Part shown: positions 6,970 to 34,742 of the stretch, piece by piece
Layout: each line of letters opens with the position of its first letter
Numbering within the stretch: the stretch's first letter is position 1
Assembly (NCBI GenBank): GCA_003554965.1
Contig: PWHR01000046.1
Span: 56,149 to 120,148 of the forward strand
Direction of reading: 5' to 3'
Length of the DNA stretch: 64,000 nt
Source: Thermoplasmata archaeon
GTDB taxonomy: Archaea; Thermoplasmatota; Thermoplasmata; Halarchaeoplasmatales; Halarchaeoplasmataceae
The notes under the pieces: model-generated
Databases searched by the model: none
Seen by the model: only the letters and a program-made list of their open reading frames with translations
What the model was told of the DNA's origin: nothing
Translations under genes and position numbers: made by a program

Positions 6970-9282
6970 TTAATCTTTAAATCCAAGATCACATTCTGGA
7001 TTCGGACAGAATTCCCAAGGCTCTTTACTCTTTTTAGTCATCTTCTGGATAGGAGCTCCGCATTTTTCACACTTTTCTCCTGAATGGACTATATTACCTC
7101 TGCGAGGCAGCGGGTAAGTGTTTTTACAATCGGGATAGTTAGAACATCCGAGAAATCTTTTACCTTTGTATGAGCGTTGCTCTCTCATATCTCCACCACA
7201 TTCATCACATTCGCCTCTAAACCTTTCTTTATTGTTGTACTTACACTTTATATCGATACACAATTTTTCCGTGTCTCCTCCGTGGTAAACTTTTATCATC
7301 GGAGAGCCGCATTCTGGACACTCATCATTATCAGGTTTAACGGTCCCCGAACGGGGGATACTGTAAGTATTCTTACAATCGGGATAATTACTGCATCCGA
7401 CAAATCTTCCTCTTTTTGATTTCCTTATGACAAGAGTGCCGTCGTCACACTCAGGACAGACCCCAACAGCGTTTTGGTCTCTTAATGAACGTTTCAATTC
7501 CTTCCTGATCTCTTCTCTATCCTGTTTAAGAGATTTGATAACTTTTTCAAGCATCTCTCTTGATTCTTCTACCACTTTTTCCTTTTCTAGATCTGCCTCG
7601 GCGATCTTTTTCATGTCTTCTTCAAGGGTCCGGGTCATATCAGGTTTAGTGACCATCTCCGCGTGCTTTTCCATGGTTTTGATGACACTTTTCCCGGTGA
7701 TAGTTGATCGGGGTACCTTTCCTTTGATGAAGTTCCTATTGTAGAGTTTCTGTATTATACCGTGTCTAGTACTTTTGGTGCCAAGACCTTTGTCTTCCAT
7801 TATCTGAACTAATCTTCCTTGGGAATACCTGTTAGGAGGTTTTGTCTCTTTTTCCTCCATAGCTACGTCGGAGACTTTGACTTTTTCACCCTTCTCTACT
7901 GCGGGCATCTTCACTTCTTTTAGTTTGTAATACGGATAATATTTTCTCCAGCCGGCCTTTATCAGCTCATTACCTTTGGATTTGAACTCTTCTCCTTTTA
8001 TATCAAATCTAGCTTTTCTTAGTCTCTTCACTCCATAAGGAGCTAAGGTTGCTAAAAAACGTCTCAATATCAGTTCATATACTTTCCATCTTTTTCCACT
8101 CAGATCATCTTTGGTGGCGGGTTTAATCGGATAAATTGGAGGATGATCAGTTGTCTTTTTTTTCCCTTTTGTCGCCCAGATCTTATCCTGTGATAGTAGC
8201 TCGTTTACTTCATCGGATAATTCTGAGCTTTTTAATTTCTTTAAGTGCTCTTCAAGATGCAAACTGTCAGGGTAGACAGTATTTTCTGTTCTTGGGTAGG
8301 AGATCCATCCTGCGGTATAAAGGTCTTCAGCGATGCTCATGGCCTGAGATGGACTCAATCCGATCTTATTTGCATCAGAAAGATATTTCGTTGTATTGAA
8401 TGGAATCGGGGGCCAATCCTTCTTAGTTTTCTCTTCAAAGTGTAATGTTTGCGCTTCTTCGGCCTTTTCAACTGCTCGGTAAACTTTATCGGCTTTCTCT
8501 TTGTCCCATATCTTATCTTCTTCGTAAAAGGCTTTGAATTCGATATCCTTCTCCAGGATAGCAGTCAACTTCCAATATGGCTCAGGATCGAAGGATTCTA
8601 TCTCATCATCTCTATCCACTATTATAGCCAGTGTTGGACTCTGGACCCTTCCTACCGAAAGGAAGTCATCTCCGTATTGGCCTGAAGCTTTAGAAAGAAA
8701 ACGTGTTAGCACAGCGCCCCATGCAAGATCGACGACCTGTCTAGTGTCTGCGGATTCGGCAAGATTTATATCGAGGTCTTTCAGATCCGAAAAGGCCTCT
8801 TCAAGTTCATTTTTGGTGATAGAACTGAATCTCGCCCTCTCCATATCTACATTCTTTGTGGAACCTTCATTAGCTATCCTTGCAGCTTCTAACCCTATCA
8901 ATTCGCCCTCTCTATCATAATCCGTAGCCACCACGATACGATCAACTTCCTTTCCCTTTTTCTTTAAAAGATTAGCTATCCTTTTGGCTGTCATCTTCTT
9001 TTCGGGTTCTACCCAAATCAACTCCTCTTCGTCGACCCTACTCCAATTGTTGTACTTTTTAGGATAATCGTATTGAACTATATGACCCCTAAGAGGGACG
9101 CATATATATTGCTCTCCATCTCTTTCAAATTCAAAATAGGGATGATTATAGTATGAATCCTGGGTCTGATTACCCCCTGAAAGTAGATAAGCGATACGAG
9201 AAGCGGCACTCTTCTTTTCACATATCAACAACGTAGTCATCGGATGCGGACTACTTGAGGTGAAGTATTTAATCTTTCCCAT
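6970..9282 (-). CDS. topA: DNA topoisomerase I (type IA) with C-terminal zinc ribbons
   Basis: 770 aa. TOPRIM (LLICEKKSAASRIA), active-site tyrosine region (GWISYPRTENTVY) and several C-terminal Cys4 ribbons. Confidence 0.9.
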   Translation of the reverse strand: MGKIKYFTSSSPHPMTTLLICEKKSAASRIAYLLSGGNQTQDSYYNHPYFEFERDGEQYICVPLRGHIVQYDYPKKYNNWSRVDEEELIWVEPEKKMTAKRIANLLKKKGKEVDRIVVATDYDREGELIGLEAARIANEGSTKNVDMERARFSSITKNELEEAFSDLKDLDINLAESADTRQVVDLAWGAVLTRFLSKASGQYGDDFLSVGRVQSPTLAIIVDRDDEIESFDPEPYWKLTAILEKDIEFKAFYEEDKIWDKEKADKVYRAVEKAEEAQTLHFEEKTKKDWPPIPFNTTKYLSDANKIGLSPSQAMSIAEDLYTAGWISYPRTENTVYPDSLHLEEHLKKLKSSELSDEVNELLSQDKIWATKGKKKTTDHPPIYPIKPATKDDLSGKRWKVYELILRRFLATLAPYGVKRLRKARFDIKGEEFKSKGNELIKAGWRKYYPYYKLKEVKMPAVEKGEKVKVSDVAMEEKETKPPNRYSQGRLVQIMEDKGLGTKSTRHGIIQKLYNRNFIKGKVPRSTITGKSVIKTMEKHAEMVTKPDMTRTLEEDMKKIAEADLEKEKVVEESREMLEKVIKSLKQDREEIRKELKRSLRDQNAVGVCPECDDGTLVIRKSKRGRFVGCSNYPDCKNTYSIPRSGTVKPDNDECPECGSPMIKVYHGGDTEKLCIDIKCKYNNKERFRGECDECGGDMREQRSYKGKRFLGCSNYPDCKNTYPLPRRGNIVHSGEKCEKCGAPIQKMTKKSKEPWEFCPNPECDLGFKD

Positions 9283-9434
9283 ACGCTAAATCCGTGATTA
9301 GAATTCGGTTCAAGATCGATTGATTTTGATTCAAAAATGGAAAAAGACTAATAAACCGATTATTTTACTGATTTTTGAAAAAGAAGAAATAACAAATAGG
9401 ATAAACTATATGTAGAAATACAAGATTAAACCTG

Positions 9435-12400
9435 GTGAGTAAAGGCTTATCCGAGGTAGGAGATGAGAAATTGTGTGGAAAATACCTTAAAGCTAGAAAA
9501 CTTGCAAGAGAGATGGAGGAGAAAGCCAAAAAAACCGCTCAATTAAAAGAAGAAGCTAAAAAAAAGAAGGAGAAGGTAGAAGAACTTTTGAAAGCTTCTA
9601 TGCAGATCGACATAGAAGTGGATGTCGAGATAGATGAATATGAAATGGAAGAAAAGATCGACGAAGCTAAAAAAGAGATCGATGGCAAGAACTTTGAAGA
9701 AGCTGAAAAAAAATTTAATGAAGTCATAGACCAGCTTCAAGAATGCAATTTTGCTAAATTCGAAAAAATCATCGAACCAGTAGAAAATTATATAGAGTTT
9801 GCCGAAAAAGATTCAAAATCTGAAGAATTAGAGGGAAAGATAGAAAGAGCTAAAGAGCTGATCGAAAAGGGAGAGATTGAAGAAGGGTTCGAGATAGCCG
9901 AAGAAACTAGCCAGGAAGTGGAAGAAACAATCGAGGAAAGAATAGGGGAAGAGTTGGAAGAGATTCAGTCATTAACAAGAACGATCGACCGATCAGGTGT
10001 CCCGATAGAGGAGATCGAGAAGATCATATCTAAAGCCGATTATGCCTACGATGCCAGCGAATATGAAAGGGCGATGTCTTTGGTAGAGGAGGCTAAAGAA
10101 TCCCTAGATGAAGAATTATCGGACGATTTAGAAGATATGTTGAATTCATTTGAAAAAAGGATAGAAAAGTTCGAAAAGAAAGGAATGAATGTTTCTGAGG
10201 TCCAAGAAGATCTAGAAGAAGCGAAAAAAAGAGAGGATGAGGATGAATACCGAATAGCCCTCAAATATATCCAATCAGGAAATGAAAAATTGGATGAATT
10301 CTTTATAGATATATTGGATCAAAGTATCGAAGAACTGAAAGATGAGATTGATGAAGCTAAAGATATAGGAGCCTCTACTGAGGAGGTAGAAAAAAAGTTA
10401 GAAGAAATAAAAGAACTGAGGGAGGATCAAAGATTCCAGAAGATGAGTGGGCTCCTAGACGAAGCTTTTGAGGAGATAAGTGAAACAAAATTCAACATGG
10501 TTTTGAACACTATAGCCGATTCGCGAGATTATTTCATAAAGGCTAAAAATATAGGAGCCGATATCAAAGAGCCGATGGAACTTTTGAGCAAAGCTAGAAA
10601 CTCCTTGAACGAAAGAAACTACAAAAAAGCTTTGGACTGGGCTGAAAAGGGCAGAGAAAGAGTAGAAGGGCTAGTGAAAAAATTTGAAGATTGTCAGGAT
10701 GAAATAGAAGATAAGAAAACCAAGATGGATGAGTTAAAAAATATCTTGGACATCGATCTTTCAGAAGAAAGAGATACAATAGCAAAGGCAGAGTCGAAGT
10801 TGATGGGTGAAAAATACGAAGAGGCTAAATCTATCCTTGAAGAGTTCGAGGAAGTCTTCGATAAAAAAATTTATGATGAGATAATGGAGCATATCGATGA
10901 GCTAGACAAACTCATTATGACTGGTTCTGAGATTGATGTTAAGACTGAAGATACTTCTCATGAATTTAATCAAGCGGTTGAAAGTTCTAAATCTTCAAAT
11001 TTCATAGAAGCTGCTCAGACGATAAGAAAGACAAAGAATAAGATGGTGGAGAGGATAGAAGATGAATTGGGGAGTATGATCCAAGATATAAGGAAAAGCC
11101 TGAATATGATAGAGGATATCGAAGAGAATCAAAGAGGGGATATCCAGGATTTATTGGGGAAAGCAGATAATAAACTATCCTCTGGAAGATATGATGAGGC
11201 CGTGAGATTGGCAAAAGAAGCAGAAGAACAGCTAGATTTGGCTCAGATCGGGAGCGCTGAAAAACATGTCCAAAAAACCATCGATCTTGTTGAGCGTCTA
11301 GAAAAGATCGATATAGAGGATGAGGAATTAGATCTTTCGTCCTATAGAGAGAGGATAGATGGAGCAAAACAAAAATTGGAGGACAAAGAACATGTCCGAG
11401 CTGTTGATGATGTAGATCAAATGAGGGAAGAGCTGAACGAAGAATTAGAAGATAAGGTGGAACAGTTGTTCGAGGGGGCAAAAAAAGAAACAGTGGTAGC
11501 AAAAAAAATCGGAGTCGATATCGAGGACTTTAGAATGAATTTGATCGAATGCAAGAAAAAGATAAAACAAAACAACCATCTAGAAGCTGCACAGATCGCC
11601 TTTGACGTTAAAGAGGGTGCTAAGGAACTCCATAAAAAAAGAAAGGAAGCCTATGATATGATTTCCGAAACTACTTCAAAGCTAAAATCGATGAAAGAGG
11701 AGGGGAAAATCGACGATATCTCAGAACTTAAAGATTCTTTGAAGACAGCTAAAGAGGATTTTGAAAACAAAGATTATTCATCAGCAAAGGAAAGAATCGA
11801 AGAGATCGACTTGAAAATATCTAGTATGAGAAAAATGGATATATTCGGTAAGAAGAAAAATGAGATATTTAACAGGATGAGGGAGTTCGAAAGTCATAAG
11901 TTTGGCATAGAGAGCTTCGATGATATAAGGCAAGAAATCGAAGAGATCGAGTCAGATGCGAAAGCTGAGGAAGCATATTCTAAAGCCTTGATGAAGTTGG
12001 AAGACTTCGGGAAGAAGATCGATGAGAAAGTTAAAGAGATCATAGAAGATCGATTAGATGATATCAGGAACACCATAAAATCAGCAGAAAAATTAGCCAT
12101 GGATACCCAAGAAGTGTGGGAGCACGTGAAAGAAATCAAAAAATCTGTAGAAGAAGAAGATTATAAAGAAGGCTTAAAGATATTGGAAAAATGCTACAAA
12201 AAGTTAGAAAAACTCAAAAGCAAATACGAAAAGGCACAGGATTTTATCGAGAAAACAGAGGATGAACTTCAAGAAGCTGAAAATATAGAGGCTGACGTTG
12301 AGGAGGGGAAAGAAGCCCTAGAAAAAGCGAAAGCCGCATTCAAAGGTCATCGATGTGAAGAAGCTTTACAGAGAGCGAAAGAAGCAGAAAACAGTTTGAG

Positions 12401-13838
12401 AAAAGCACAAAAAGAAAAGGTCGATAATATAATTAAAAGGTTCAAAGAAAAAGTTTCATCCTTGAGAAGAGACCAAGATACTGCCCTTGCTAATAATCTT
12501 TTAAATAAAGCACAGAAAGCGAAAGAAAAAGGTTCATACAAGGAGGCCATAAAGTATTCGATGCAGAGTGAGGGTGAGCTGGAGAAGATGGAACTTCAGC
12601 AATCTGTATCGAAGAGGAGTATCTCGAAAGCAGAAGAAAAGATAAAGGAGGCAAGAGAGAAAGGACTCTTGATCAACGACCCAAAAAGAGCATTTCAGGA
12701 GGCAAAGAACTCATACCAAAGCGGCTTTTACGTTAAGGCATTCGAGAAAGCTTTAGAAGCTAGTCAAGAGTTGAGTCATTCTATCAAAGATTTTGAGTAC
12801 ACAAAAAGATTCTTAGAGAATATAGAAACTGCGATATCGGGATTGGAAGAAGAGGGTAGAGAAATAACTGAACTTGAAGACATCAAGGATGAGGTAGAGC
12901 AGGAATACAATAAAGGAGATTATGAAGCGGCTAAATCAAAGGTTAAAGAGGCTGAATACGTTTTTCAACAAGAAAAAGAAGCATTGGTGAACTTCATATC
13001 TGAAGCAGAAGAAAAGATCGATGAGTATGGGGCGAACGATGAATCTGATCAGAAGATAGATAGAGCTTGGACCCTTGTAGATCTAGATCAACCACTAGAG
13101 GTCATCTGTTTGATAAATAAAGCGAAACAAGTTTCTGGTTTACAGATGCTAGAAGGATATGAAAACACTATCGAAAAAGTTCAAGGGCTGGTCGAAAAGG
13201 CTAGAAAATTTGGAGCTTCTGTAGAAGTTGTAGATAAGGAGATCAAAGAGGCAAAACGAATGGAAGAAAATGAAAATTTTGAAGATGCACTCGAAAAGGC
13301 CAAGGATGCTTTAGAAAGTGTAGAAAAAGCTCTTGAGCCCTACAGCCCAAAGATAGATGTGGAAGTGTCTGAAGCCCTCGATCTATATCGATGGAATTCC
13401 ACTAAAGTCAAATTGGAAAATACCGGAAACGGTTTCGCTAACGATATTGGTCTGGATATGAAAGGAGGGGAAATCGAGGGTTTCGATGTAAAAGACAAGA
13501 TGAGAGCAGGAGAAGTGATCGAAATAACAGGGATGATAAAACCGATAAACGAAAACGCAAAGGTCATCGGAAAAGCTCACAGGGTGTTCGATCAAAAAGA
13601 ATTGATAGACAAAACAGATATCAAAATCAAAGGTGAAGAGACCGAAGAAGAAAAGACGATATGTGAAGCATGTGAAAATGAGATCAAAGGGTCCGATAAA
13701 TTAAAATCCTGTAAGGATTGTGGGACTCCGTTCCATAAAAAATGTCTGGAGGGAAAAGAGATATGCCCGATTTGCGGAGAAGGTCTGAAGACCGAGGAAA
13801 AGAAGAAAAAAAGAAGGTTGGACATGGGTCTAGGATAG
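9435..13838 (+). CDS. Giant acidic helical-repeat (K/E-rich) protein with C-terminal beta-domain and C4HC3 RING/PHD-like zinc finger; function unknown
   Basis: 1467 aa. About 10 degenerate helical-hairpin repeats share the core [KR]xxxxxxxYxxAxxxxxxAxxxL. C-terminus reads CEAC-x11-CKDC-x4-H-x2-C-x6-CPIC. Confidence 0.6.
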   Translation: MSKGLSEVGDEKLCGKYLKARKLAREMEEKAKKTAQLKEEAKKKKEKVEELLKASMQIDIEVDVEIDEYEMEEKIDEAKKEIDGKNFEEAEKKFNEVIDQLQECNFAKFEKIIEPVENYIEFAEKDSKSEELEGKIERAKELIEKGEIEEGFEIAEETSQEVEETIEERIGEELEEIQSLTRTIDRSGVPIEEIEKIISKADYAYDASEYERAMSLVEEAKESLDEELSDDLEDMLNSFEKRIEKFEKKGMNVSEVQEDLEEAKKREDEDEYRIALKYIQSGNEKLDEFFIDILDQSIEELKDEIDEAKDIGASTEEVEKKLEEIKELREDQRFQKMSGLLDEAFEEISETKFNMVLNTIADSRDYFIKAKNIGADIKEPMELLSKARNSLNERNYKKALDWAEKGRERVEGLVKKFEDCQDEIEDKKTKMDELKNILDIDLSEERDTIAKAESKLMGEKYEEAKSILEEFEEVFDKKIYDEIMEHIDELDKLIMTGSEIDVKTEDTSHEFNQAVESSKSSNFIEAAQTIRKTKNKMVERIEDELGSMIQDIRKSLNMIEDIEENQRGDIQDLLGKADNKLSSGRYDEAVRLAKEAEEQLDLAQIGSAEKHVQKTIDLVERLEKIDIEDEELDLSSYRERIDGAKQKLEDKEHVRAVDDVDQMREELNEELEDKVEQLFEGAKKETVVAKKIGVDIEDFRMNLIECKKKIKQNNHLEAAQIAFDVKEGAKELHKKRKEAYDMISETTSKLKSMKEEGKIDDISELKDSLKTAKEDFENKDYSSAKERIEEIDLKISSMRKMDIFGKKKNEIFNRMREFESHKFGIESFDDIRQEIEEIESDAKAEEAYSKALMKLEDFGKKIDEKVKEIIEDRLDDIRNTIKSAEKLAMDTQEVWEHVKEIKKSVEEEDYKEGLKILEKCYKKLEKLKSKYEKAQDFIEKTEDELQEAENIEADVEEGKEALEKAKAAFKGHRCEEALQRAKEAENSLRKAQKEKVDNIIKRFKEKVSSLRRDQDTALANNLLNKAQKAKEKGSYKEAIKYSMQSEGELEKMELQQSVSKRSISKAEEKIKEAREKGLLINDPKRAFQEAKNSYQSGFYVKAFEKALEASQELSHSIKDFEYTKRFLENIETAISGLEEEGREITELEDIKDEVEQEYNKGDYEAAKSKVKEAEYVFQQEKEALVNFISEAEEKIDEYGANDESDQKIDRAWTLVDLDQPLEVICLINKAKQVSGLQMLEGYENTIEKVQGLVEKARKFGASVEVVDKEIKEAKRMEENENFEDALEKAKDALESVEKALEPYSPKIDVEVSEALDLYRWNSTKVKLENTGNGFANDIGLDMKGGEIEGFDVKDKMRAGEVIEITGMIKPINENAKVIGKAHRVFDQKELIDKTDIKIKGEETEEEKTICEACENEIKGSDKLKSCKDCGTPFHKKCLEGKEICPICGEGLKTEEKKKKRRLDMGLG

Positions 13839-14395
13839 ATGAATATACATCATCGACATATAAAAGTCTACTTTTACACACCTGTTGTGCTCCCTGCTTA
13901 ACATATACCTATAGAGAATTCGATAGTAAATTTGAGGAAATAACGGCATTGTGGTTCAATCCAAACATCCATCCATTCAAAGAATATGAAAGTAGATTTT
14001 CAGCTTTGAAAAGATATGAGGAGAAAACAGGTCACGATGTTATCTATATCGACATTTACGATCTAGAAGGTTTTTTAGAAGGAATATCGGAGATGGAATC
14101 TAGATGCAATTTCTGCATCGAGTGGAGATTCAGAAAAACAGCTGTTGAGTGTGTTAAAAGAGGATTCGACTCATTCTCCTCCACATTGATCCTATCCCCA
14201 TATCAGGATCATGATCGTTTGAAAAGGTTGGGGAAAAAGGTTGCAAAGGAAGAAGGGATAGAGTTCATATATGAAGATATGAGGGATGGTTTTGAAGAGC
14301 ACCATCAGTTAGCCGATGAGATGAATCTTTATAAGCAGGGCTACTGCGGCTGTATATTCAGTGAAAAAGAGAGATATCAAAAGGATTTAAAGTGA
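13742..14395 (+). CDS. queH: QueH-like protein (DUF208; epoxyqueuosine reductase family)
   Basis: Contains LLLHTCCAPC, the DUF208/QueH signature, plus additional conserved Cys residues. There is no in-frame ATG/GTG/TTG between 13838 and that motif, so the start must lie inside the preceding gene (overlap of at least 76 nt). Confidence 0.55.
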   Translation: MSGGKRDMPDLRRRSEDRGKEEKKKVGHGSRIDEYTSSTYKSLLLHTCCAPCLTYTYREFDSKFEEITALWFNPNIHPFKEYESRFSALKRYEEKTGHDVIYIDIYDLEGFLEGISEMESRCNFCIEWRFRKTAVECVKRGFDSFSSTLILSPYQDHDRLKRLGKKVAKEEGIEFIYEDMRDGFEEHHQLADEMNLYKQGYCGCIFSEKERYQKDLK

Positions 14396-23778: not shown

Positions 23779-26700
23779 TTACTCTTCGAAGGATTCGGTT
23801 TCTCTAGTCTCTTCTTTCACTGGTTCATTTCCGCCTTTTTTCATCATCACCGCGAAGACTGCTATTATCACTGCAAGTATCGCTAAGACCATTCCGACTA
23901 TTCCTAGGTTTCTAGCCATATCTACATCGTCTTCAAGGTCTGAAATGTCGTCTTCGATATCTGCTATGTTTCCTTCGATGTCTTCTATTTCCGCTTCAAT
24001 GTCTTCAATGTCTCCTTCGATGTCTTCTATTTCCGCTTCAATGTCTTCTATGTTTCCTTCAATACCGTCTATGTCTCCCTCAATGTCGTCTATGTTTCCT
24101 TCAATGTCATCTATGTTTCCTTCAATGTCATCTATGTTTCCTTCAATGTGGTTTATGTCTCCTTCAATGTCGTCTATCTGGGCTTGGAGATCTGACTCAA
24201 CGTCATCTAATTCATCGTCTAAATCGTCTATCTGATTTTGAAGTTCTGTCTCAATGTCATCTAATTCATCAAACAAATCGTCTATCTGGGTTTGTAGACC
24301 TGTCTCAACGTCATTTAAGTCATCTCTCAAGTCATCTAGTTCATCATTCAATTCCTCTAGCTCAGGTAGATACAGTGCATAAACCGTAGCTTCTGCGACA
24401 ATCTCCTCATCATCCATAGCCTGAACTGTGAATACATTTTGTCCTTCTATGAGGTCAGTCTCGTATACGAATTCTCCGTTATCATCAACAGATACAGATG
24501 CATCGTTAACGTACACATCTAGATTTGGATCGGTCTCACCATGGATTGTGAACTCTTCATCATAGGTTAGACTTTCCACACCGTCTTCTGGACTAAATAT
24601 CTCTAGTTTTTCCTCTATAGTGGATACCTCAAAGACCCTAGTCTCAGTATATCTGTTCCCAGCTCCATCAGTAGCTCTGACCTGTACAACGTGAGTACCA
24701 TCCTCTAATCCAATAAAGGTGTAGTCTGTATCAGTTCCGATATCGTCCCAATCACCGTAGTTTATCCGTATCTCGTAATCGATGTCTCCTAGATATTCGT
24801 GTCCTTCCCATTCTACAGTCACCGTATCCTGCTCTATTATCACATAGTCCTCTTCTGGAGAGGTTATGTCAAAGGCTTCAACAGGTGGATTCACTATGAC
24901 TGATATCTTATCTGTATCAGTGTTACCCTCTTCATCGCTAACCTCGAGATATACATCGTAGGTTCCTTGGTATGGGAAGACGTAATCGACGATCTCTCCT
25001 TCAGTTGTATCATAGTATCCTTCCGCTTCACCAGAAATTCCTTCAATCGACCAGCTCCAATCTTCTACTCCGACATTATCCGTGGAACCAGATCCGTCTA
25101 GCTCATATTCGACTCCTACTCTTGTTTGATCAGATGTGCCTGCATCTGCTACCGGATCTTCAGTATCTATGGCATAGATTTCATCCCATGCTTCGGCGGA
25201 ATTACCATAAGCGTCAGTTACTGTTAGAGTTATGTCATAATAGAGAGCGTACTCCAAAGGCTTCTCTATCACTGGTTCGTAGAAATAGTATGTCTCGTCG
25301 TATGGATCGACGATCTCCCATGTGTAGTTTTCGATTCCTGCGTTATCGGATGGTGGGTTATACGATTCTGTTGCATTCAGTGTTATGGTGTCGCCCTGGT
25401 AGTAATCTGGTTCCTCTTCGATGTGGAATTCGGCATGCGGTTCCACATCATCTTCTAGATGGAATGACCAACCGTATCCTTCTGGTACTGCAGCTGGGTC
25501 ACTAGTATACTCTACTGCATTAGCGAACATCTGGTTCGCTTCTTCGGACCAACCCGGATCGTCGGCTTCTCCAAAGAATCCTATTCCCTTAGCTGGGAGC
25601 AGGACTTCATTCCTATCTTCACAGACGCCTACCGCTGGTCCTCCATATCCTCCACCGTAATCTTTCTCAGCGAGTATTTCTCCACTGTATTCATCGAACC
25701 ATGAACCCCAGTTAGTGGTTCCGTCGAACATCAACACTTCATCTCCTTCTTCTCCAATATCTTCGAATATCGGATGATCTTCGAGTATCTCTAGATATTG
25801 TGGTGGGTTCGTACCAGTTCCTTCAGAATCATGGTATCCAGGATCATCTCTTACGTTGTGTAGCTGAGTAACTCCGTCAGAATAACCTTCTTGACTAGCG
25901 CCAACATGTGTATCTAGATAGACAACTCCTTGTCCGTCTTGTAGATTGTCTAGGAAGTCTTCAGCAGCCGCTTCAGAGTCTGCCTCTGTATACTCATACC
26001 TCTGTATAACAAATGTATCATAATTGTCTATCTCATCTATAAGCCAATCGTCCCAGTGTTCGTTATCTTCGTTCCACAATGTTTCAACGTTGTATTCGTC
26101 GTCTGGTAAGTAGTCTTCCAGTTTATACTCGATCTCATATTCTTGCCAGTTGTCCGCATCGACTACTGCAACGTCAACTTCGTCGCCCATCAATTCTTCG
26201 TCAGTCGGCTCTTCATCGATCTCGTCACCAGTTACTGGGACTTCAACATAGGCTTCAAGACCCCAAGCACCAAGACCTGACTCCTCCCAGTTCGCTGGGT
26301 CATGAGGATCTTCCCAAGTGATCCATTGTCCTTCGTCGGGATAAGAAGTATCATCTATTCCAAATGGGAAATGACCATCGCCGGGATCATCTATGTGCAT
26401 TACTATCCAATACTCATCTTCCTCTATCATGACATCTTCGTCAAGTTCGAGTTCGACCCAACCTGCTCCTTCTGGGTTATATTCCTCTGTCTCTGTGAGC
26501 CATTCTCCTGGTGCTCCTCCATCATCTTCTGCTATGTAACCATAAGCCCAGTCGCCAAATTCACCAGTGTCATCGTCATAGTCATAATAAGCGACTTCTG
26601 AGATGTATCCTCCTATATCGTCTGATAGGTCCAATCTCATGGCACCGTACCAGTCAATTGGATCTGGTCCTACACCTCCGGCATTATCAGCTTCAAATCG

Positions 26701-29700
26701 ATGGTCTGCTTCGTATAACCAGCGCCATTCTCCTTCTAATTCACCAACATGTTCAAAGTTAGCTGTTATCTCTTTATCCGAATCCATAGTGACAGTTATC
26801 TCTTCTTCAGTACCTTCATAATCACCAGTCCATTCGGTAAATTGCCATTCAGCGTCCTCAGGTATCGCTTCAAGATCCACATCAGTACCTTCAATGTAGT
26901 TGTCCTCTTCTGGATCGATCTCAACTGTTCCTTGGCCAGCAACATCGACATCTAAAGTATACATACCTGGGTTTATACTACCCATGTTGTAATCTTCGTA
27001 TGTTACCATCACGTACCAGTGATTATCGTTAGCCATCCTTTCTTCTTCTAGTTCCCAAGTCGTCTCTAACCTCTGATCTTCAATGATCTCGAATGAATCG
27101 ATCAGTTGATCCCAGTTTCCGTCGTAGAATTCGACTTCAATATATTGGTCGGTCGGATTGGTCACATCAACAGATAGATCTTGTTCAAGACCTGTTACCC
27201 ATTCGTCATGTTCTGGTTCTGGTTCTGTAGCTTCAGGCAGTGGTAATTCATAGACCGAATCTTCATTCATCTCTCTATTACCTACTCTGTCAACTGCTCT
27301 CACAACATAATGCCACTGTTCTCCGTCATCCGCCATTCCTTCATCTACATAACTGTACTCTTCTGATCCATCGGCCTCGACTTCGGCTATAGGTTCGTCC
27401 CATGGACCGTCCTGGTCTTCAGCTCTGTAGACTTCATAATATTCAGTGTCATCGTAACCTGCACCATCATCTGGTGACGCATCCCAAGTCAACTCGTTTC
27501 CTGTAACTGCCCATGGATCTGCATCCCAATCCAGTTCTAAGTTTTCAACTTGTTCTGGAGGATCTGCGTTTATGTCTGCAGTATCATGAACGTATCTTCC
27601 TTCTGGTTCGTAGGTATGGAATTCCCATGTATCAGACTCGATGGTTGTGACTCCGTCGTAAACTTCTACATGCCATTCGAAGGTTGAATTCGTTTCTAAT
27701 AAAACAAACTGTGTAGCTGCTTCTTCTCCAGACATTACTTCTTCAACAGTTTCATTACCGATCTCATAGCCGTCTTCATCGTACAGGTAGAATGTTACAT
27801 CCATGTGGTAATCATTTGGATCGTTGACTGTCACATTCATCAGTGGGGAATGAGTCACATCTTCTTCACCATCATACGGGCTTGGATCAGATACTTCAGG
27901 ATCTTCATGTTCATCCACGAAGACTCGTTCACTAACCTCTACGTTCTCTAGATTATCATCTTCAGGATGATCAGTTACCATCGTTAGAATGTAATCGCTC
28001 GGTTCTTCAGTTTCGGGAGTCCAGTCATCGAACTGGACCTGTTCGTCCTGACCAACACTCAAGTTTTCCACTTCTTGTTCGTCGTAGTATTCTTCTTCGG
28101 TATATTCCGTGGTTATAGTTACATCATCGATTCCCCAGTACTCATCTTCTTCGACTTCTTCTGAATAAATCTCCCAACCTATCCAGACTTCGTCTTCTTC
28201 AGAAGCCCATTGAGTTATATCGTATTCTTGTTCGCCGTGAGTTATGTTCCTGCCTATCCTTTTATAGCTATCGCCTTCATCGGTCGAGATCAAGAGTGAT
28301 CTTTCGTTTTCGTCGTAATTTCCTTCAAATTCAGAGAAGAATTCCAGGATGACTCTGTGTTCACCGTCACTACAATCAGCCATCTCAGACCACAGTATAT
28401 CGTGTTCGTGGTCGTCTATCGGAGTTATCTCGACCTTCTCTTCCTCTTCGTTATATTCCCAAGTATTATCGTTTCCATCCCTATCTTCGGCTTCCCAACC
28501 ATTATCAAATGGATCATCTGAGAAGTCCTCATCAAGCGGGATGTCGTCAATTATCTGTTCGATGCTCATTTCGACAGGTCCTTCATCAATATCCTGGTTA
28601 CCGACGTTGGTGACTGTTCCAGTAACGTTTCTCTCCTGGAAGTCAAATATCGGTTCTTCTGGTTCATCTATGGAAGTAGCTTCAAGATCATAGACGATCG
28701 GGATCACTTCAGTGAACTGCTCTAGGGTGGCTGAATCAGGATCAGTTTCATCTTCATGTTTAGCTGTAATATTGAATACATATTCACCTGCATCGGAAGG
28801 TGTCCAATCCTCGAACTCTGCATTGATCGTCTCGTCTTCATCTATAGTGACCTCTATCTCGTCAGAATAATCTTCTTCTCTTTCGCCCAATATAACGTCG
28901 TTGACGAACCAGTCATCCAGTTCGATCGTCGAGCCATGATATTCAAAGATCACCTGGGTTTCAGGACCTATATGGTCTGTTAGATTAACCTCATAATGAT
29001 CGGGCGCAATGCTTCCATCAACTGGATTCTCCCACGGGGTCACATCCTGCCATGACTCATCAGGATCGGACCTAGCCTGCACTATCGCATCGAATTGGTC
29101 TGTGCTATGATCGATGTAAGAGAAGAATTCCAAAGTTAACTCATCAGCTTCGGTTGTGTCCACAGCAGGACTCTGTAGATACGAGTAATCATCGTCTCCA
29201 ACATCAAACCAATAGAGATTAGCCTCTGGTGGATTACCTCCTGCTTCGTTGGAATCAGACTGAGTCCAGTCATCTGTTTCCCAACCTTCAGGTGGGAAAC
29301 TACCAGAGAAATCTTCAACGAATCCTTCGACATGTTCAGCTTTAGCTTCAACCGGTACATCTTCAACCATGAAGTCGCCATAGTTAGTTATCTCGGCTTC
29401 AACGTCCTGGGTTTCTTCCCAGACTTCTGTTTCTGGAGAGATTATCTCATCTACACCTAGATTCGCTTCGGGTGCTCTGACCAATATTGTTTCCCTCACG
29501 TAATCGAGTTCATCATCTAATTCTGTGCTGACGTTTATCTCGTACTCACCGACTTCTTCTGGATCCCACTCTTCAAATTCGACCTCTTTTGTCTCCTGAG
29601 CATCTATGTCTATTGTTGTAGCGTCGTCATATTCGTCATCTAAGCTTGTAACCATTACTTCGTATATCTCCCAGCTATCAGGTGTAAATGGATCTCCTCC

Positions 29701-32700
29701 GTGGTCGTCAGTTTCGTAGAGGAATCCTATCTGAACGTTCTCTTCACCGTCTGCATATTCTGATATGTCATAATAGATTTCGCCAAAATCATCATCCGTA
29801 AAGTTGTCGATCTCTTCCCATGTATCTCCACCATCTGTCGTAATCGAGATTTCCCCGTAGGGGTCACCTTCAATTCCATCGTCGAAATCGTGATCGACAA
29901 CGAGTTCAGTTCCTTCTGCCTCGGAAGCATCGATTTCTGGTGAGATCAACCATTCTTCTTGGACTTCTCCGTCATCATCCTCTACCCTTGCCATGCCTTC
30001 GTCGTCAAAGTAATGCTCCCAAGTTTCATCGCTCGTATCATCTATCTCCCATTCATCAGGGATTTCATCATGGAAGTCTTCATCTAGCCAGTAAAGTACT
30101 TGTTCCATCTCTACATCTACAGGAACTTCCTCTTCGTCGAATGTTCCGTAGTTTTCTATTGCGGTTGTAACGTCATGAACCTCATCGATCATCACAGTAT
30201 CGCTCGGGGAAATAATCTCTGAAACTTCTACACCGTGGACATCTTCGACTATTATATCCTGCGTGGTTCCGAAACCTACTATTTCATCATCTAAGTCTTC
30301 CGTCGTGGACTCCATCAAATATTCTCCTTTTTCATCTGGGTTCCAGTCTTCGAAAACCGCAGTAGTTTCTTCACCGGCATCTACGTCTACTTCGATTTCA
30401 TCTTGATATACATCTTGAACATATTCTACAGTGACCTCTTCGATACTCCAATCACAGAATGTTGAATGATCGTCGTCGTCGCTGCTGTGCCATACAAAAG
30501 CAACATGAACTTCTTCTTCACCATCTGCGTAGTCTGATATATCATACTCATACTCACCGTCAGGATCATCGTCTCCATCCCATTCTTCTATAAGATCCCA
30601 TTCATCGCCACCGTCCGAACTGACCTGGACTTCGGCAGTGTATTCTGGATCGCCAAAGCTGGGGCTTAGATCATGATCGAATATCAGCGTAGTATGGGAA
30701 CCATCGCTTACATCGATCTCCGGACTTATCAACCACTCTTCCTGGATTTCGTCACGGGTAACATCGATATCTGCCGAACTCGTTCCATGATGCCAAGTTT
30801 CATCGCTCGTATCATCTATCTCCCAATCGTCAGGTATCTCATCATCGAAATCCTCGTGTAGTGCGGTAACAAATTCATTTATCGTAGTCTCTACGGGTAC
30901 GTCTTCGTGATCAGCATCTCCTAAATTTTCAACTAGTGTTTCAATAGCATGATCTTCTTCAGTATTCACTCTTTCAGGAGGTTCTAGTATTTCGCTCACT
31001 CCGACTACATCGTCAGGCATCTCTGTAAAGTATTCTACTGAATTTGCCAATAGGGTCCAAGCTTCGTCCGTCCAATCTGGATCGTCTGGTGGGGCAAAGT
31101 AATCTATACCCACTGCTGGGAGTAGGATCTCATTTCCATCTTCATCGATCCCTACACCTTGTCCTTCGTAGGTAGTATCGTCATTATGGTATATGACTTC
31201 AGCTAGATCGTCTCCGCTGTAATCTTCGTAATAAGAACCGTAGATGTTACTTCCGACGTACATGTCAACAACATCGTCTTCTTCACCTACTCCATCAAAT
31301 ATTTCATGATCTTCTTGTATATCAATCTGGACAGGCGGCCTTGTATCGAGACCTTCGGCCCAATGTTCTTCAGGGTCATCGCGCACATTATGGAGTCTTG
31401 TTACACCATCTGGATAGCCTTCGTCAGTAGCACCCTCGTCAGAGTCTAGATATATCGCTGCTTGATCATCTTCTAGTTCATCCAAGAAGTCTTCAGCTAG
31501 TGAATCGCTGCCGAACCTCCACGGTACGAACGCATCGTAGTTCTCCATCTCATCTATTAGTTCATCGGCCTCTAACGTATCAACGACATATGGTCCTACC
31601 AAGCGTTGTTCTAATTGGTAAGCGATCTCGCCTTCAAAATAGTCTATTTCATCGATCACAGCTATTTTCGGAATCTCTTCATGCGGCGTCTCTGTAAGCA
31701 AATCCTCGTTTTCACTATCCATGCCTTCTTCAAGATCATCAGGATGTCCTGGATCCGCATCCCAGTACTCTGCTTCTATCTCGCCAGCATGGTCGACTTG
31801 AAGAGTTCCTTCTTCATCTTCTTCACTTAATTGCACTTGACCCTCGAAAAATCCTAAGTTCTCTTCATCTTCTTCCAATTCTAACGTTTTAACCTCGATC
31901 TCTTCTCCATCTTCATCGTAACTTGTCACATTAACCTCGTGAGTTCCCTCTCCTTCAAGTATTATGTCGTTCAAAGTAACATTGACAAGATCTTCACCGG
32001 CATACTCGTCCTTCTCGATCTCAATCTCACCTTCTTTGTCAGGTACTTCTATATCAACAATGTCGTCAGGAACGTTCGAGGCACTCAAAGCATAATCCTG
32101 GTTCGCCTCTCCATCGTTGTTAGCGTCTTCAGGAACATTAGTTCCGTGAACTCTAACGGTATAAGAACCGCTCTCTAGTTCGTCAGGATGAATGAAAACG
32201 TTCTGAACGTTGTTCACATCATCCCAACCGTCTCCATCATAATCGAAATCATCCATGACATCTGTATTCGGATAACTGTAACCGCTATCACTAGTACCGT
32301 CACCAGTTTCATCGAAAGCATTACCTCTGTATATGTCGCCACCAGGAGATTCCACTTCAAGATCCAAATTGTTCTTCAGTGTTGGTGTCCCACCTGCACT
32401 ATCGCCTTCTTGAGCGTTTTTATCTGTATAAGAAAGCGTTACCTTCAATGGTTCATCCTCATCTGCAGGATTAAACTCGTATTCTTCAACTTCTCCTGTT
32501 TCTATCAAAGTCTCCTGATCTTCCAGTTGGAATCCCATCGGTTCTTCTTTTGGATATTCTAATTTTGATAGATTCGGAACGCCCCAACCTTCATCTCTGT
32601 TTGGCACGTGCCCATCTGAAGGTATATTTCCTCCAGTATTACCTACTTCAGGGTCTAGTTCCTCTGCAGTATTAACGAGGATAGATCTGACCATGGCGGG

Positions 32701-34536: not shown

Positions 34537-34742
34537 ACTTAATACCTCTACCACTAGCACTGTCTACATTCATCTTTAGAGGATTAATAAATCTCACTAC
34601 GACATGTCGACGATTCGAGGGGAAAAAGGATATAAGAGCTTTTGCTATAGAGATATATCACATGTATTTACACCGAATTATAGTAATTTATTTTCATAAC
34701 GGGAGTAACTTCTTTATAACCCTTAAACCTACTTGTATCTAA

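Follow-up and report, generated by a model that had tools for sequence, protein, structure and literature searches.

A giant protein of Thermoplasmatota predicted to join a 20-repeat helical rod to an Ig-like domain and a RING/PHD-type zinc finger

EzrA, a regulator of the bacterial Z-ring (PMC4243239; PDB 4UXV/4UY3), is the closest multi-repeat structural match of the protein described here, whose gene lies in a 64,000-nucleotide stretch of a Thermoplasmata archaeon (assembly GCA_003554965.1, contig PWHR01000046.1, positions 56,149 to 120,148 of the forward strand; hereafter the window). Two archaeal proteins offer further points of comparison. DUF357 (arCOG01224; AF_1782, PDB 2OO2) is a small protein present in nearly all archaea, with no known function (PMC6393860). 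CdpC is the membrane anchor of FtsZ1 in Haloferax volcanii, which it binds through a zinc ribbon, and distant relatives with several zinc ribbons are reported from all Thermoplasmatota classes (bioRxiv 10.64898/2026.07.16.738847). In archaea, cdrS-ftsZ2 is an established and widely conserved division operon (PMC7439475), but FtsZ-based division is still poorly inventoried in this domain and new haloarchaeal parts keep appearing (CdpA, CdpB, CdpC).

Several elements of the window protein are already known: the Pfam family of its zinc finger, its CARDB-like sandwich, and the design of its repeat rod, which resembles that of spectrin and EzrA. The architecture that joins them and the 63-residue repeat of the rod carry no functional name in the sources that we searched, a published survey of prokaryotic RING domains lying outside their scope.

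Predicted architecture of the repeat/RING protein

The gene very probably encodes a protein of about 168 kDa made of an N-terminal helix, 20 three-helix units, an immunoglobulin-like (Ig-like) domain and a two-zinc finger. As modelled, this large protein is soluble and non-enzymatic and carries interaction-type modules at either end. Pfam and NCBIfam scans revealed no catalytic domain, and the sequence has no hydrophobic segment of the kind that would mark a membrane span or a signal peptide, which together with the cysteine zinc finger fits a cytoplasmic location. A preliminary description of the locus, made from the sequence alone, had called the protein acidic, K/E-rich and almost entirely helical. 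The composition agrees (E 18.6%, K 14.0%, D 7.8%; pI 4.7; net charge about -122), and the helical character holds up to about residue 1305 in the DSSP assignment of the AlphaFold2 (AF2) models. These models cover residues 1-1180 (mean predicted local distance difference test, pLDDT, 80.7; predicted template modelling score, pTM, 0.30) and residues 1181-1467 (mean pLDDT 84.7), and together give 20 successive units, in each of which a turn separates a 15-residue helix from a longer one of about 39 residues, and then the beta-sandwich and the finger. The features of the gene are as follows:

9435-13838, forward strand: open reading frame (ORF) of the giant repeat/RING protein (ORF list; 100% match to cluster P0001; full-length homologues of 1,413-1,486 amino acids, aa)
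9477-9605, forward strand: basic N-terminal helix, residues 15-57, motif GKYLKARxLAxEMEEKAKKTA (alignment, AF2)
9600-13349, forward strand: array of 20 repeats of about 63 aa, residues 56-1305, predicted to be chained three-helix bundles
10344-10724, forward strand: repeats 5-6, residues 304-430, where the rod is most conserved; a candidate partner-binding site (conservation)
12447-12830, forward strand: repeats 16-17, residues 1005-1132, a second conserved stretch (DTALA..., AMQSEGELEK..LQQ, GFYVKAF; conservation)
13350-13634, forward strand: predicted Ig-like beta-sandwich of CARDB type, residues 1306-1400, after a conserved YSPK linker
13656-13784, forward strand: predicted RING/PHD-type binuclear zinc finger, residues 1408-1450 (Prok-RING_1, seven invariant cysteines, RING-H2/PHD profile matches)
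13785-13835, forward strand: Lys-rich linker and conserved C-terminal peptide (...KKKKRRLDMGLG; alignment of the C-terminus)

The periodicity of the rod is clear in the self-comparison of the family profile, where off-diagonal matches fall at multiples of about 62-64 residues (top score 55.6, background -19.9 ± 11.1). The 20 copies are spaced by 62.9 ± 2.9 residues and start at residues 68, 127, 192 and so on up to 1264. These values replace the period of 80-100 residues and the approximately 10 copies proposed earlier; the four signatures quoted in support of that count do represent a single motif, and come from repeats 3, 6, 15 and 17. According to AF2 and DSSP, the unit opens with a helix of 15 residues, which a 3-residue turn connects to a second helix of about 39 residues; a loop of 5 residues closes it. 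All 20 units can be aligned on the consensus ..A...G.D..E....L.EAK.......YEEA...AEEA.E.L. The models suggest that each unit folds as a small bundle of three helices, the long one continuing into the next bundle, and from the helix lengths we estimate a rod of 50-60 nm. The repeat has no family of its own in the copy of Pfam that we searched; when 78 single repeats were scanned, the weak matches were scattered over 147 families in all, among them YfdX (9 repeats), EzrA (7), DUF4398 (6) and TPR_2 (4).

Conservation is uneven along the rod, which indicates that the repeats are positionally distinct and not interchangeable. Repeats 5 and 6 have values of 0.62 and 0.69, against about 0.45 elsewhere, and include a block with invariant columns between K352 and V410 (KFxKVLNTIAESRExFIKAKEIGADIxEPMELLxKAR...) that is still recognisable in the broad family. 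Repeats 16-17 (0.65) contain the invariant positions A1019, A1026, E1046, L1049, Q1055 and K1101, of which Q1055 is invariant family-wide. The best-conserved parts of the protein are thus the N-terminal helix, repeats 5-6, repeat 16, repeat 20 and the finger.

The rod is followed, at residues ~1306-1400, by a seven-stranded sandwich predicted with a pLDDT above 90, the small beta-domain that had been noticed before the finger at the outset. Its structural matches are generic Ig-like folds. The Pfam scan gave no significant CARDB (PF07705) match in the window protein itself; the distant member P0052 scores 28.2 bits, for a gathering threshold of 22.7 bits, and 2 of 23 close relatives match with an E-value of 0.0016.

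The zinc finger has the motif C-x2-C-x12-C-x2-C-x4-H-x2-C-x6-C-x2-C, i.e., eight ligands in C4HC3 order. The ligands and their order were correctly read in the preliminary description, the spacer after the first cysteine pair being 12 residues long instead of the 11 given there. In alignments of 26-35 relatives, seven of the ligands (C1410, C1413, C1426, C1429, C1437, C1444 and C1447) show no variation at all, far beyond chance. The fifth, H1434, is a histidine in at least 90% of the broad family; 13 of the 28 finger-bearing members of the halophilic clade have E, D or Q in its place. The finger itself can be lost: it is deleted in the halophilic member P0006 and missing from a subfamily of ~1,443 aa that keeps the N-terminal helix, the rod and the beta domain. 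The initial assignment to the RING/PHD class is borne out by the Pfam family Prok-RING_1 (PF14446; cut-off 29.1 bits), which scores 34.0 bits on the last 112 aa, 30.2 on the last 287 aa and 26.7 on the full-length protein, and which matches 17 of 23 clade members. The finger therefore belongs to an existing prokaryotic RING family, even if the remark that this was not a recognisable family stands for the protein as a whole. When the finger profile is compared with the PDB, all ligand positions align with the RING-H2 E3 domains of RNF165, RNF24, Arkadia and AMFR (E ~1e-5); the profile also aligns with the PHD fingers of Pygopus and MTF2 and, more weakly, with C1 domains. With the whole protein as query, the sequences of the PDB gave a marginal match to RNF24 alone (E 0.19). 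In the AF2 model (finger pLDDT 68-75), a knuckle is followed by two beta-strands and a short helix that starts at H-x2-C. A cross-brace is favoured over two independent ribbons, although the models are zinc-free, because the profile matches are all interleaved two-zinc domains and the beta-beta-short helix order fits a treble clef.

Both extremities are basic. The N-terminus is modelled as a single helix spanning residues 11-57, in which the columns G15-K38 are nearly invariant and the mean conservation (0.76) is the highest of all segments in the halophilic clade; its motif recurs in distant clades as SYLKAxQLxKQLEEKAKEA or PYLSRLKLEKELEKKA. The C-terminal tail is predicted to be disordered (pLDDT <50) and is present in most lineages, being absent in the DHVE2-type clade. 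Its terminal peptide reads KRVSLDI, KRVALKI or KKKLALKIG in relatives and RRLDMGLG in the window, with R1461 invariant.

The repeat also occurs in other architectures outside the window (P0044, P0048, P0067, P0070, P0093, P0112 and P0123). Some combine it with an N-terminal zinc ribbon, CARDB and DUF5915, others with an N-terminal WD40/PQQ beta-propeller and C-terminal TPRs, and giant repeat proteins of 3,904-7,686 aa have 46-74 repeat matches each. The window contains a second giant ORF (23779-34560, reverse strand, 3593 aa), which encodes a Peptidase_S8 subtilase at residues 343-644 followed by InlB-B, PKD and Ig-like domains and a C-terminal coiled coil; the 63-residue repeat was not found in it.

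Taxonomic distribution and gene neighbourhoods

We searched 5.8 billion protein clusters and found 44 relatives, whose named sources are all annotated as 'hypothetical protein' and are metagenome-assembled genomes (MAGs) of Thermoplasmatota. The closest 32 full-length relatives have 1,413-1,486 aa and 30-52% identity, and a further set has ~1,550-1,640 aa and 22-25% identity. A non-halophilic member used as the seed of another search brought in about 45 more clusters, labelled 'hypothetical' or, automatically, 'TPR repeat protein'. Family-wide, the length is ~1,440-1,640 aa at 20-50% identity, in roughly 100 or more cluster representatives. The profile of the repeat unit reaches further: it matched 1,371 of 1.84 billion representatives at E<=1e-3 and 154 at E<=1e-30, and among the best 150 matches many have the full architecture, with (S/G)YLKAxQLxKQLEEKAKEA, about 20 repeats and the C-terminal finger. 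Finally, a scan of one genome per GTDB species, with a pattern derived from the N-terminal motif, identified 39 loci in Thermoplasmata MAGs, Ca. Natronoplasma, Ca. Haladaptatiplasma (order Ca. Halarchaeoplasmatales) and the DHVE2 group, a taxon sampling that is biased by the use of this motif.

The family was thus seen in Thermoplasmatota records alone, save for one contig labelled Candidatus Aenigmatarchaeota (L010, JBKHKA010000002.1). This contig has the same order of TopA, the gene, QueH and aIF2alpha as the window, with 49-85% protein identity, and is for these reasons probably a mis-binned contig of Thermoplasmatota.

The patterns of genetic organisation, which we analysed in roughly 50 neighbourhoods, differ between clades. 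In all 13 DHVE2-type loci the gene follows a ribbon-helix-helix (RHH) gene (CdrS-like, E 2e-10) and FtsZ, in this order, and precedes an ArcS-like gene (E 1e-114). In the five of these loci with called genes, the gap is 27-51 nt between FtsZ and the gene and 1-5 nt between the gene and arcS, and the RHH gene abuts or overlaps FtsZ. The outer flanks differ between four DHVE2 loci. Among the other clades, one further lineage (L038) keeps the pair formed by the gene and arcS without FtsZ. In the halophilic clade, which includes the window, the gene is followed by a QueH-like gene and then by aIF2-alpha on the opposite strand (~25 loci), and the upstream genes vary. The linkage to FtsZ is therefore real yet lineage-restricted, since it occurs in 13 of 13 DHVE2 loci but in no other clade.

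The slot 3' of the gene is always tightly packed. It is occupied by the QueH-like gene in the halophilic clade (L001, L002, L010-L032; window 13742-14395) and by the ArcS-like archaeosine synthase in DHVE2 and L038 (L004-L009, L038-L048), so that two different genes of 7-deazaguanine tRNA modification share one position. At another locus (L003, 6710-7960, forward strand), a 416-aa coiled-coil protein is encoded 40 nt upstream of the homologue P0035; it has two zinc ribbons and a basic C-terminal tail (VVKKVVKKRII), and by this description recalls the CdpC-like proteins with multiple zinc ribbons.

In the window, the gene has topoisomerase I as a divergent neighbour (6970-9282, reverse strand), the QueH-like gene directly downstream and aIF2-alpha on the opposite strand, an archaeal chromosomal setting. 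The 152-nt intergenic region between topA and the gene (9283-9434) is very AT-rich and presumably holds the promoters of both. Two further features concern the limits of the reading frame:

9453-9473, forward strand: Shine-Dalgarno-like GAGGTAGGAG (9453-9462) and probable start codon TTG (9471-9473; sequence reading, N-termini of homologues)
13865-14395, forward strand: QueH-like gene (DUF208), start codon uncertain (tblastn synteny in ~25 loci; Pfam QueH in homologous loci)

The maximal frame runs uninterrupted for 1467 codons from the GTG at 9435 to the TAG at 13836-13838, exactly as first annotated. However, the true start is likely the TTG at 9471, which would give a protein of 1455 aa, because it is preceded by GAGGTAGGAG at a distance of 9-18 nt and because translation from it yields MCGKYLKAR..., like the homologues that start with M(S/C)GKYLKAR. 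At the other end, the frame of the QueH-like gene contains no canonical in-frame start 3' of its upstream stop codon, so the two genes probably overlap by ~65-95 nt.

Proposed function and rival explanations

The architecture is backed by prediction and conservation, whereas a scaffold role, a link to division and a docking role for the finger are inferred. Our preferred reading, held tentatively, is that the protein works in the cytoplasm as a scaffold of fixed length with partners docked at its ends, possibly at the division ring. The rod would act as a fixed-length spacer or platform, as suggested by the conservation across the phylum of both its length and the identity of individual repeats, and repeats 5-6 and repeat 16 would be specific candidate docking sites. 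The two ends would tether partners, with the N-terminal helix, the Ig-like domain, the finger and the tail as putative docking modules, and the finger would serve to dock proteins and not as a ubiquitin ligase. Among cellular settings, the apparatus of cell division or of the cell envelope is the likeliest candidate; this is suggested by the order cdrS-ftsZ2-gene-arcS in DHVE2, by the resemblance to EzrA and by the precedent of the zinc module of CdpC. The link to division, taken on its own, is doubtful, and it is rather unlikely that the protein is specifically a divisome or cytoskeletal rod of Thermoplasmatota that docks on the FtsZ2 ring or tethers the ring to the membrane or envelope through its Ig-like domain, its RING-type finger and its conserved terminal peptides.

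Several observations weigh against this reading. Linkage to FtsZ occurs in a single order-level clade, where the gene order could be inherited synteny without a functional link; tblastn detected no FtsZ in the window or in the flanks of the halophilic-clade loci, and the other clades have no recurrent neighbours (FTCD and TldD/PmbA, an integrase and an S8 protease were seen). The similarity to EzrA and DUF357 is generic to three-helix bundles, de novo designed bundles scoring nearly as well, and the 7 of 78 repeats that match Pfam EzrA do so weakly. As to the rod, the continuity of helices between bundles is taken from DSSP strings and not from coordinates, and the pTM of 0.30 for the 1180-residue model leaves its shape (straight, curved or folded back) unfixed.

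Other explanations concern the nature of the helical part. A long, helical, K/E-rich protein could be an SMC/Rad50-like coiled coil for chromosome organisation, a possibility that the preliminary description had itself named as fatal to its reading, and the cysteine pairs could recall the zinc hook of Rad50. Yet Pfam and NCBIfam give no ABC-ATPase head or nucleotide-binding motif, the helices are broken every 15 and ~39 residues by conserved turns, and the cysteines lie in a C-terminal RING-type domain and not at the apex of a coiled coil; with the head domains absent, this explanation is effectively refuted. The alpha-solenoid of approximately 10 TPR/Sel1-like hairpins that had been suggested initially is very unlikely as well. 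The motif L..A......G.Y..A...a does resemble the first helix and turn of TPR/PPR units, some databases label relatives 'TPR repeat protein', and precomputed Pfam lists contain faint TPR_2 and ANAPC3 matches. Nevertheless, the period of 63 residues in 20 copies departs from the 34-40 residues of such hairpins and from the 80-100 proposed earlier, and neither the TPR/Sel1 profiles nor the alpha-alpha geometry of a solenoid were recovered: no TPR/Sel1 family is listed for the window protein at E-values up to 1 (the HMMER filters dropping most matches above ~0.1), and in the profile search of the PDB the repeat aligns with 18-20-residue 'G.YeeAl' stretches of designer PPR/TPR proteins, none of them individually significant.

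The modules at the ends of the protein invite two further explanations. The basic N-terminal helix and the polybasic tail could bind anionic lipids, so that the rods would lie against the inside of the membrane and keep the shape of the cell stable, in the manner of a spectrin-like skeleton. The charges (K+R versus D+E) are distributed accordingly, with 15 versus 9 at the N-terminus, 6 versus 3 in the tail and 215 versus 340 in the rod, the tail of most lineages has a polybasic run followed by alternating hydrophobic residues, and the repeats are predicted to be chained like those of spectrin. This is nonetheless improbable, given that the N-terminal helix has a narrow stripe of small hydrophobic residues and is thus no typical membrane-targeting amphipathic helix, that the DHVE2-type clade and several other members have no tail, and that no lipid-binding domain was detected (the C1-domain matches are weak and below cut-offs). 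We regard as more improbable still that the finger makes the protein a RING E3 ligase, recruiting an E2-like enzyme with a ubiquitin-like protein for substrates presented by the rod and the Ig-like domain. In eukaryotic RINGs, the E2-contact positions include an aliphatic residue after ligand 1 and a proline after ligand 7, and the RING-H2 spacer between ligands 6 and 7 holds an E2-contacting helix. The family consensus has the first (C-x-I-C, the aliphatic residue standing two after ligand 1) and usually the second (C-P-x-C-G); the best alignments of the finger profile are to genuine RING-H2 E3 domains. However, the loop between ligands 6 and 7 has 6 residues, versus 10 in the aligned solved RING-H2 domains, the loss of the finger in P0006 and in the ~1,443-aa subfamily indicates that it is evolutionarily dispensable, and its fifth ligand varies in the halophilic clade. 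Moreover, no E1, E2 or ubiquitin-like gene occurs in the neighbourhoods that we examined, and canonical E2 enzymes are not known in Thermoplasmatota.

Two other candidates were considered and rejected. An array of MIT domains, which would bind ESCRT-III, has weak matches in 2 of 78 repeats. A protocoatomer-like organisation (alpha-solenoid, appendage sandwich and C-terminal RING, as in alpha-COP/Vps proteins) was compared following PMC4678705: the helical part is no solenoid, the adaptin/GGA-ear matches are generic Ig folds (E 1e-4 to 1e-5), and the RING of Vps41 matches with an E-value of 0.81.

If the scaffold does act in division, no rod-type scaffold of the Z-ring would have been described in archaea before it, and it would be a case of a RING-type finger acting outside ubiquitin signalling. 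As a phylum-wide protein of ~1,500 residues whose gene neighbours cdrS-ftsZ2 in one order, it offers a concrete division candidate that can be tested. A RING/PHD-type finger without visible ubiquitin machinery also bears on the roles that such fingers had before ubiquitin signalling. Defining the 63-residue repeat, present in more than 1,300 cluster representatives of up to 7,000-7,700 residues, would annotate many proteins. Should the protein be a generic scaffold unrelated to division, the result would be a useful annotation and not a discovery.

Comparison with known systems

The modules of the protein compare in different ways with their described counterparts. The sandwich shares with CARDB the beta-sandwich fold and an N-x-G...A motif; CARDB domains are usually extracellular, whereas the one described here is predicted to be cytoplasmic. 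With Prok-RING_1, RING-H2 and PHD domains the finger shares the C4HC3 ligand order and, as predicted, the succession of knuckle, hairpin and short helix. It differs from them by its very short loop between ligands 6 and 7, and the spacing of its ligands 3-6 (C-x1-2-C-x4-H-x2-C) is like that of PHD and C1 domains and not like that of RING-H2. It is also fused to a rod of ~1,300 residues and has its histidine changed to E, D or Q in a subclade.

The unit fold of the rod resembles that of DUF357, which is a stand-alone protein of ~76 residues. Pfam DUF357 (PF04010) is absent from the 25 families most often matched by the 78 single repeats and from the scan of the whole protein, and the likeness may reflect the simplicity of the fold alone. 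CdpC provides an archaeal case of a cysteine zinc module that docks on FtsZ. It consists of two mononuclear zinc ribbons and a disordered linker instead of a binuclear RING-type finger and a helical rod; the likeness is one of analogy only, and CdpC shows by precedent that zinc modules can dock on FtsZ.

EzrA is anchored in the membrane by its N-terminus and has 5 repeats of ~100 residues, against 20 repeats of 63 residues without a membrane span in the repeat/RING protein, and it carries neither an Ig-like domain nor a zinc finger. There is no significant sequence homology between the two: the Pfam EzrA (PF06160) matches to single repeats are below threshold (best E 0.0014), and the archaeal protein has no hydrophobic segment that could correspond to the anchor. 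What it shares with EzrA, and with spectrin, is a predicted organisation in linear triple-helical bundles that are apparently joined through continuous helices; with EzrA it further shares the weak Pfam matches on single repeats and on one homologue and, in one clade, a gene adjacent to ftsZ.

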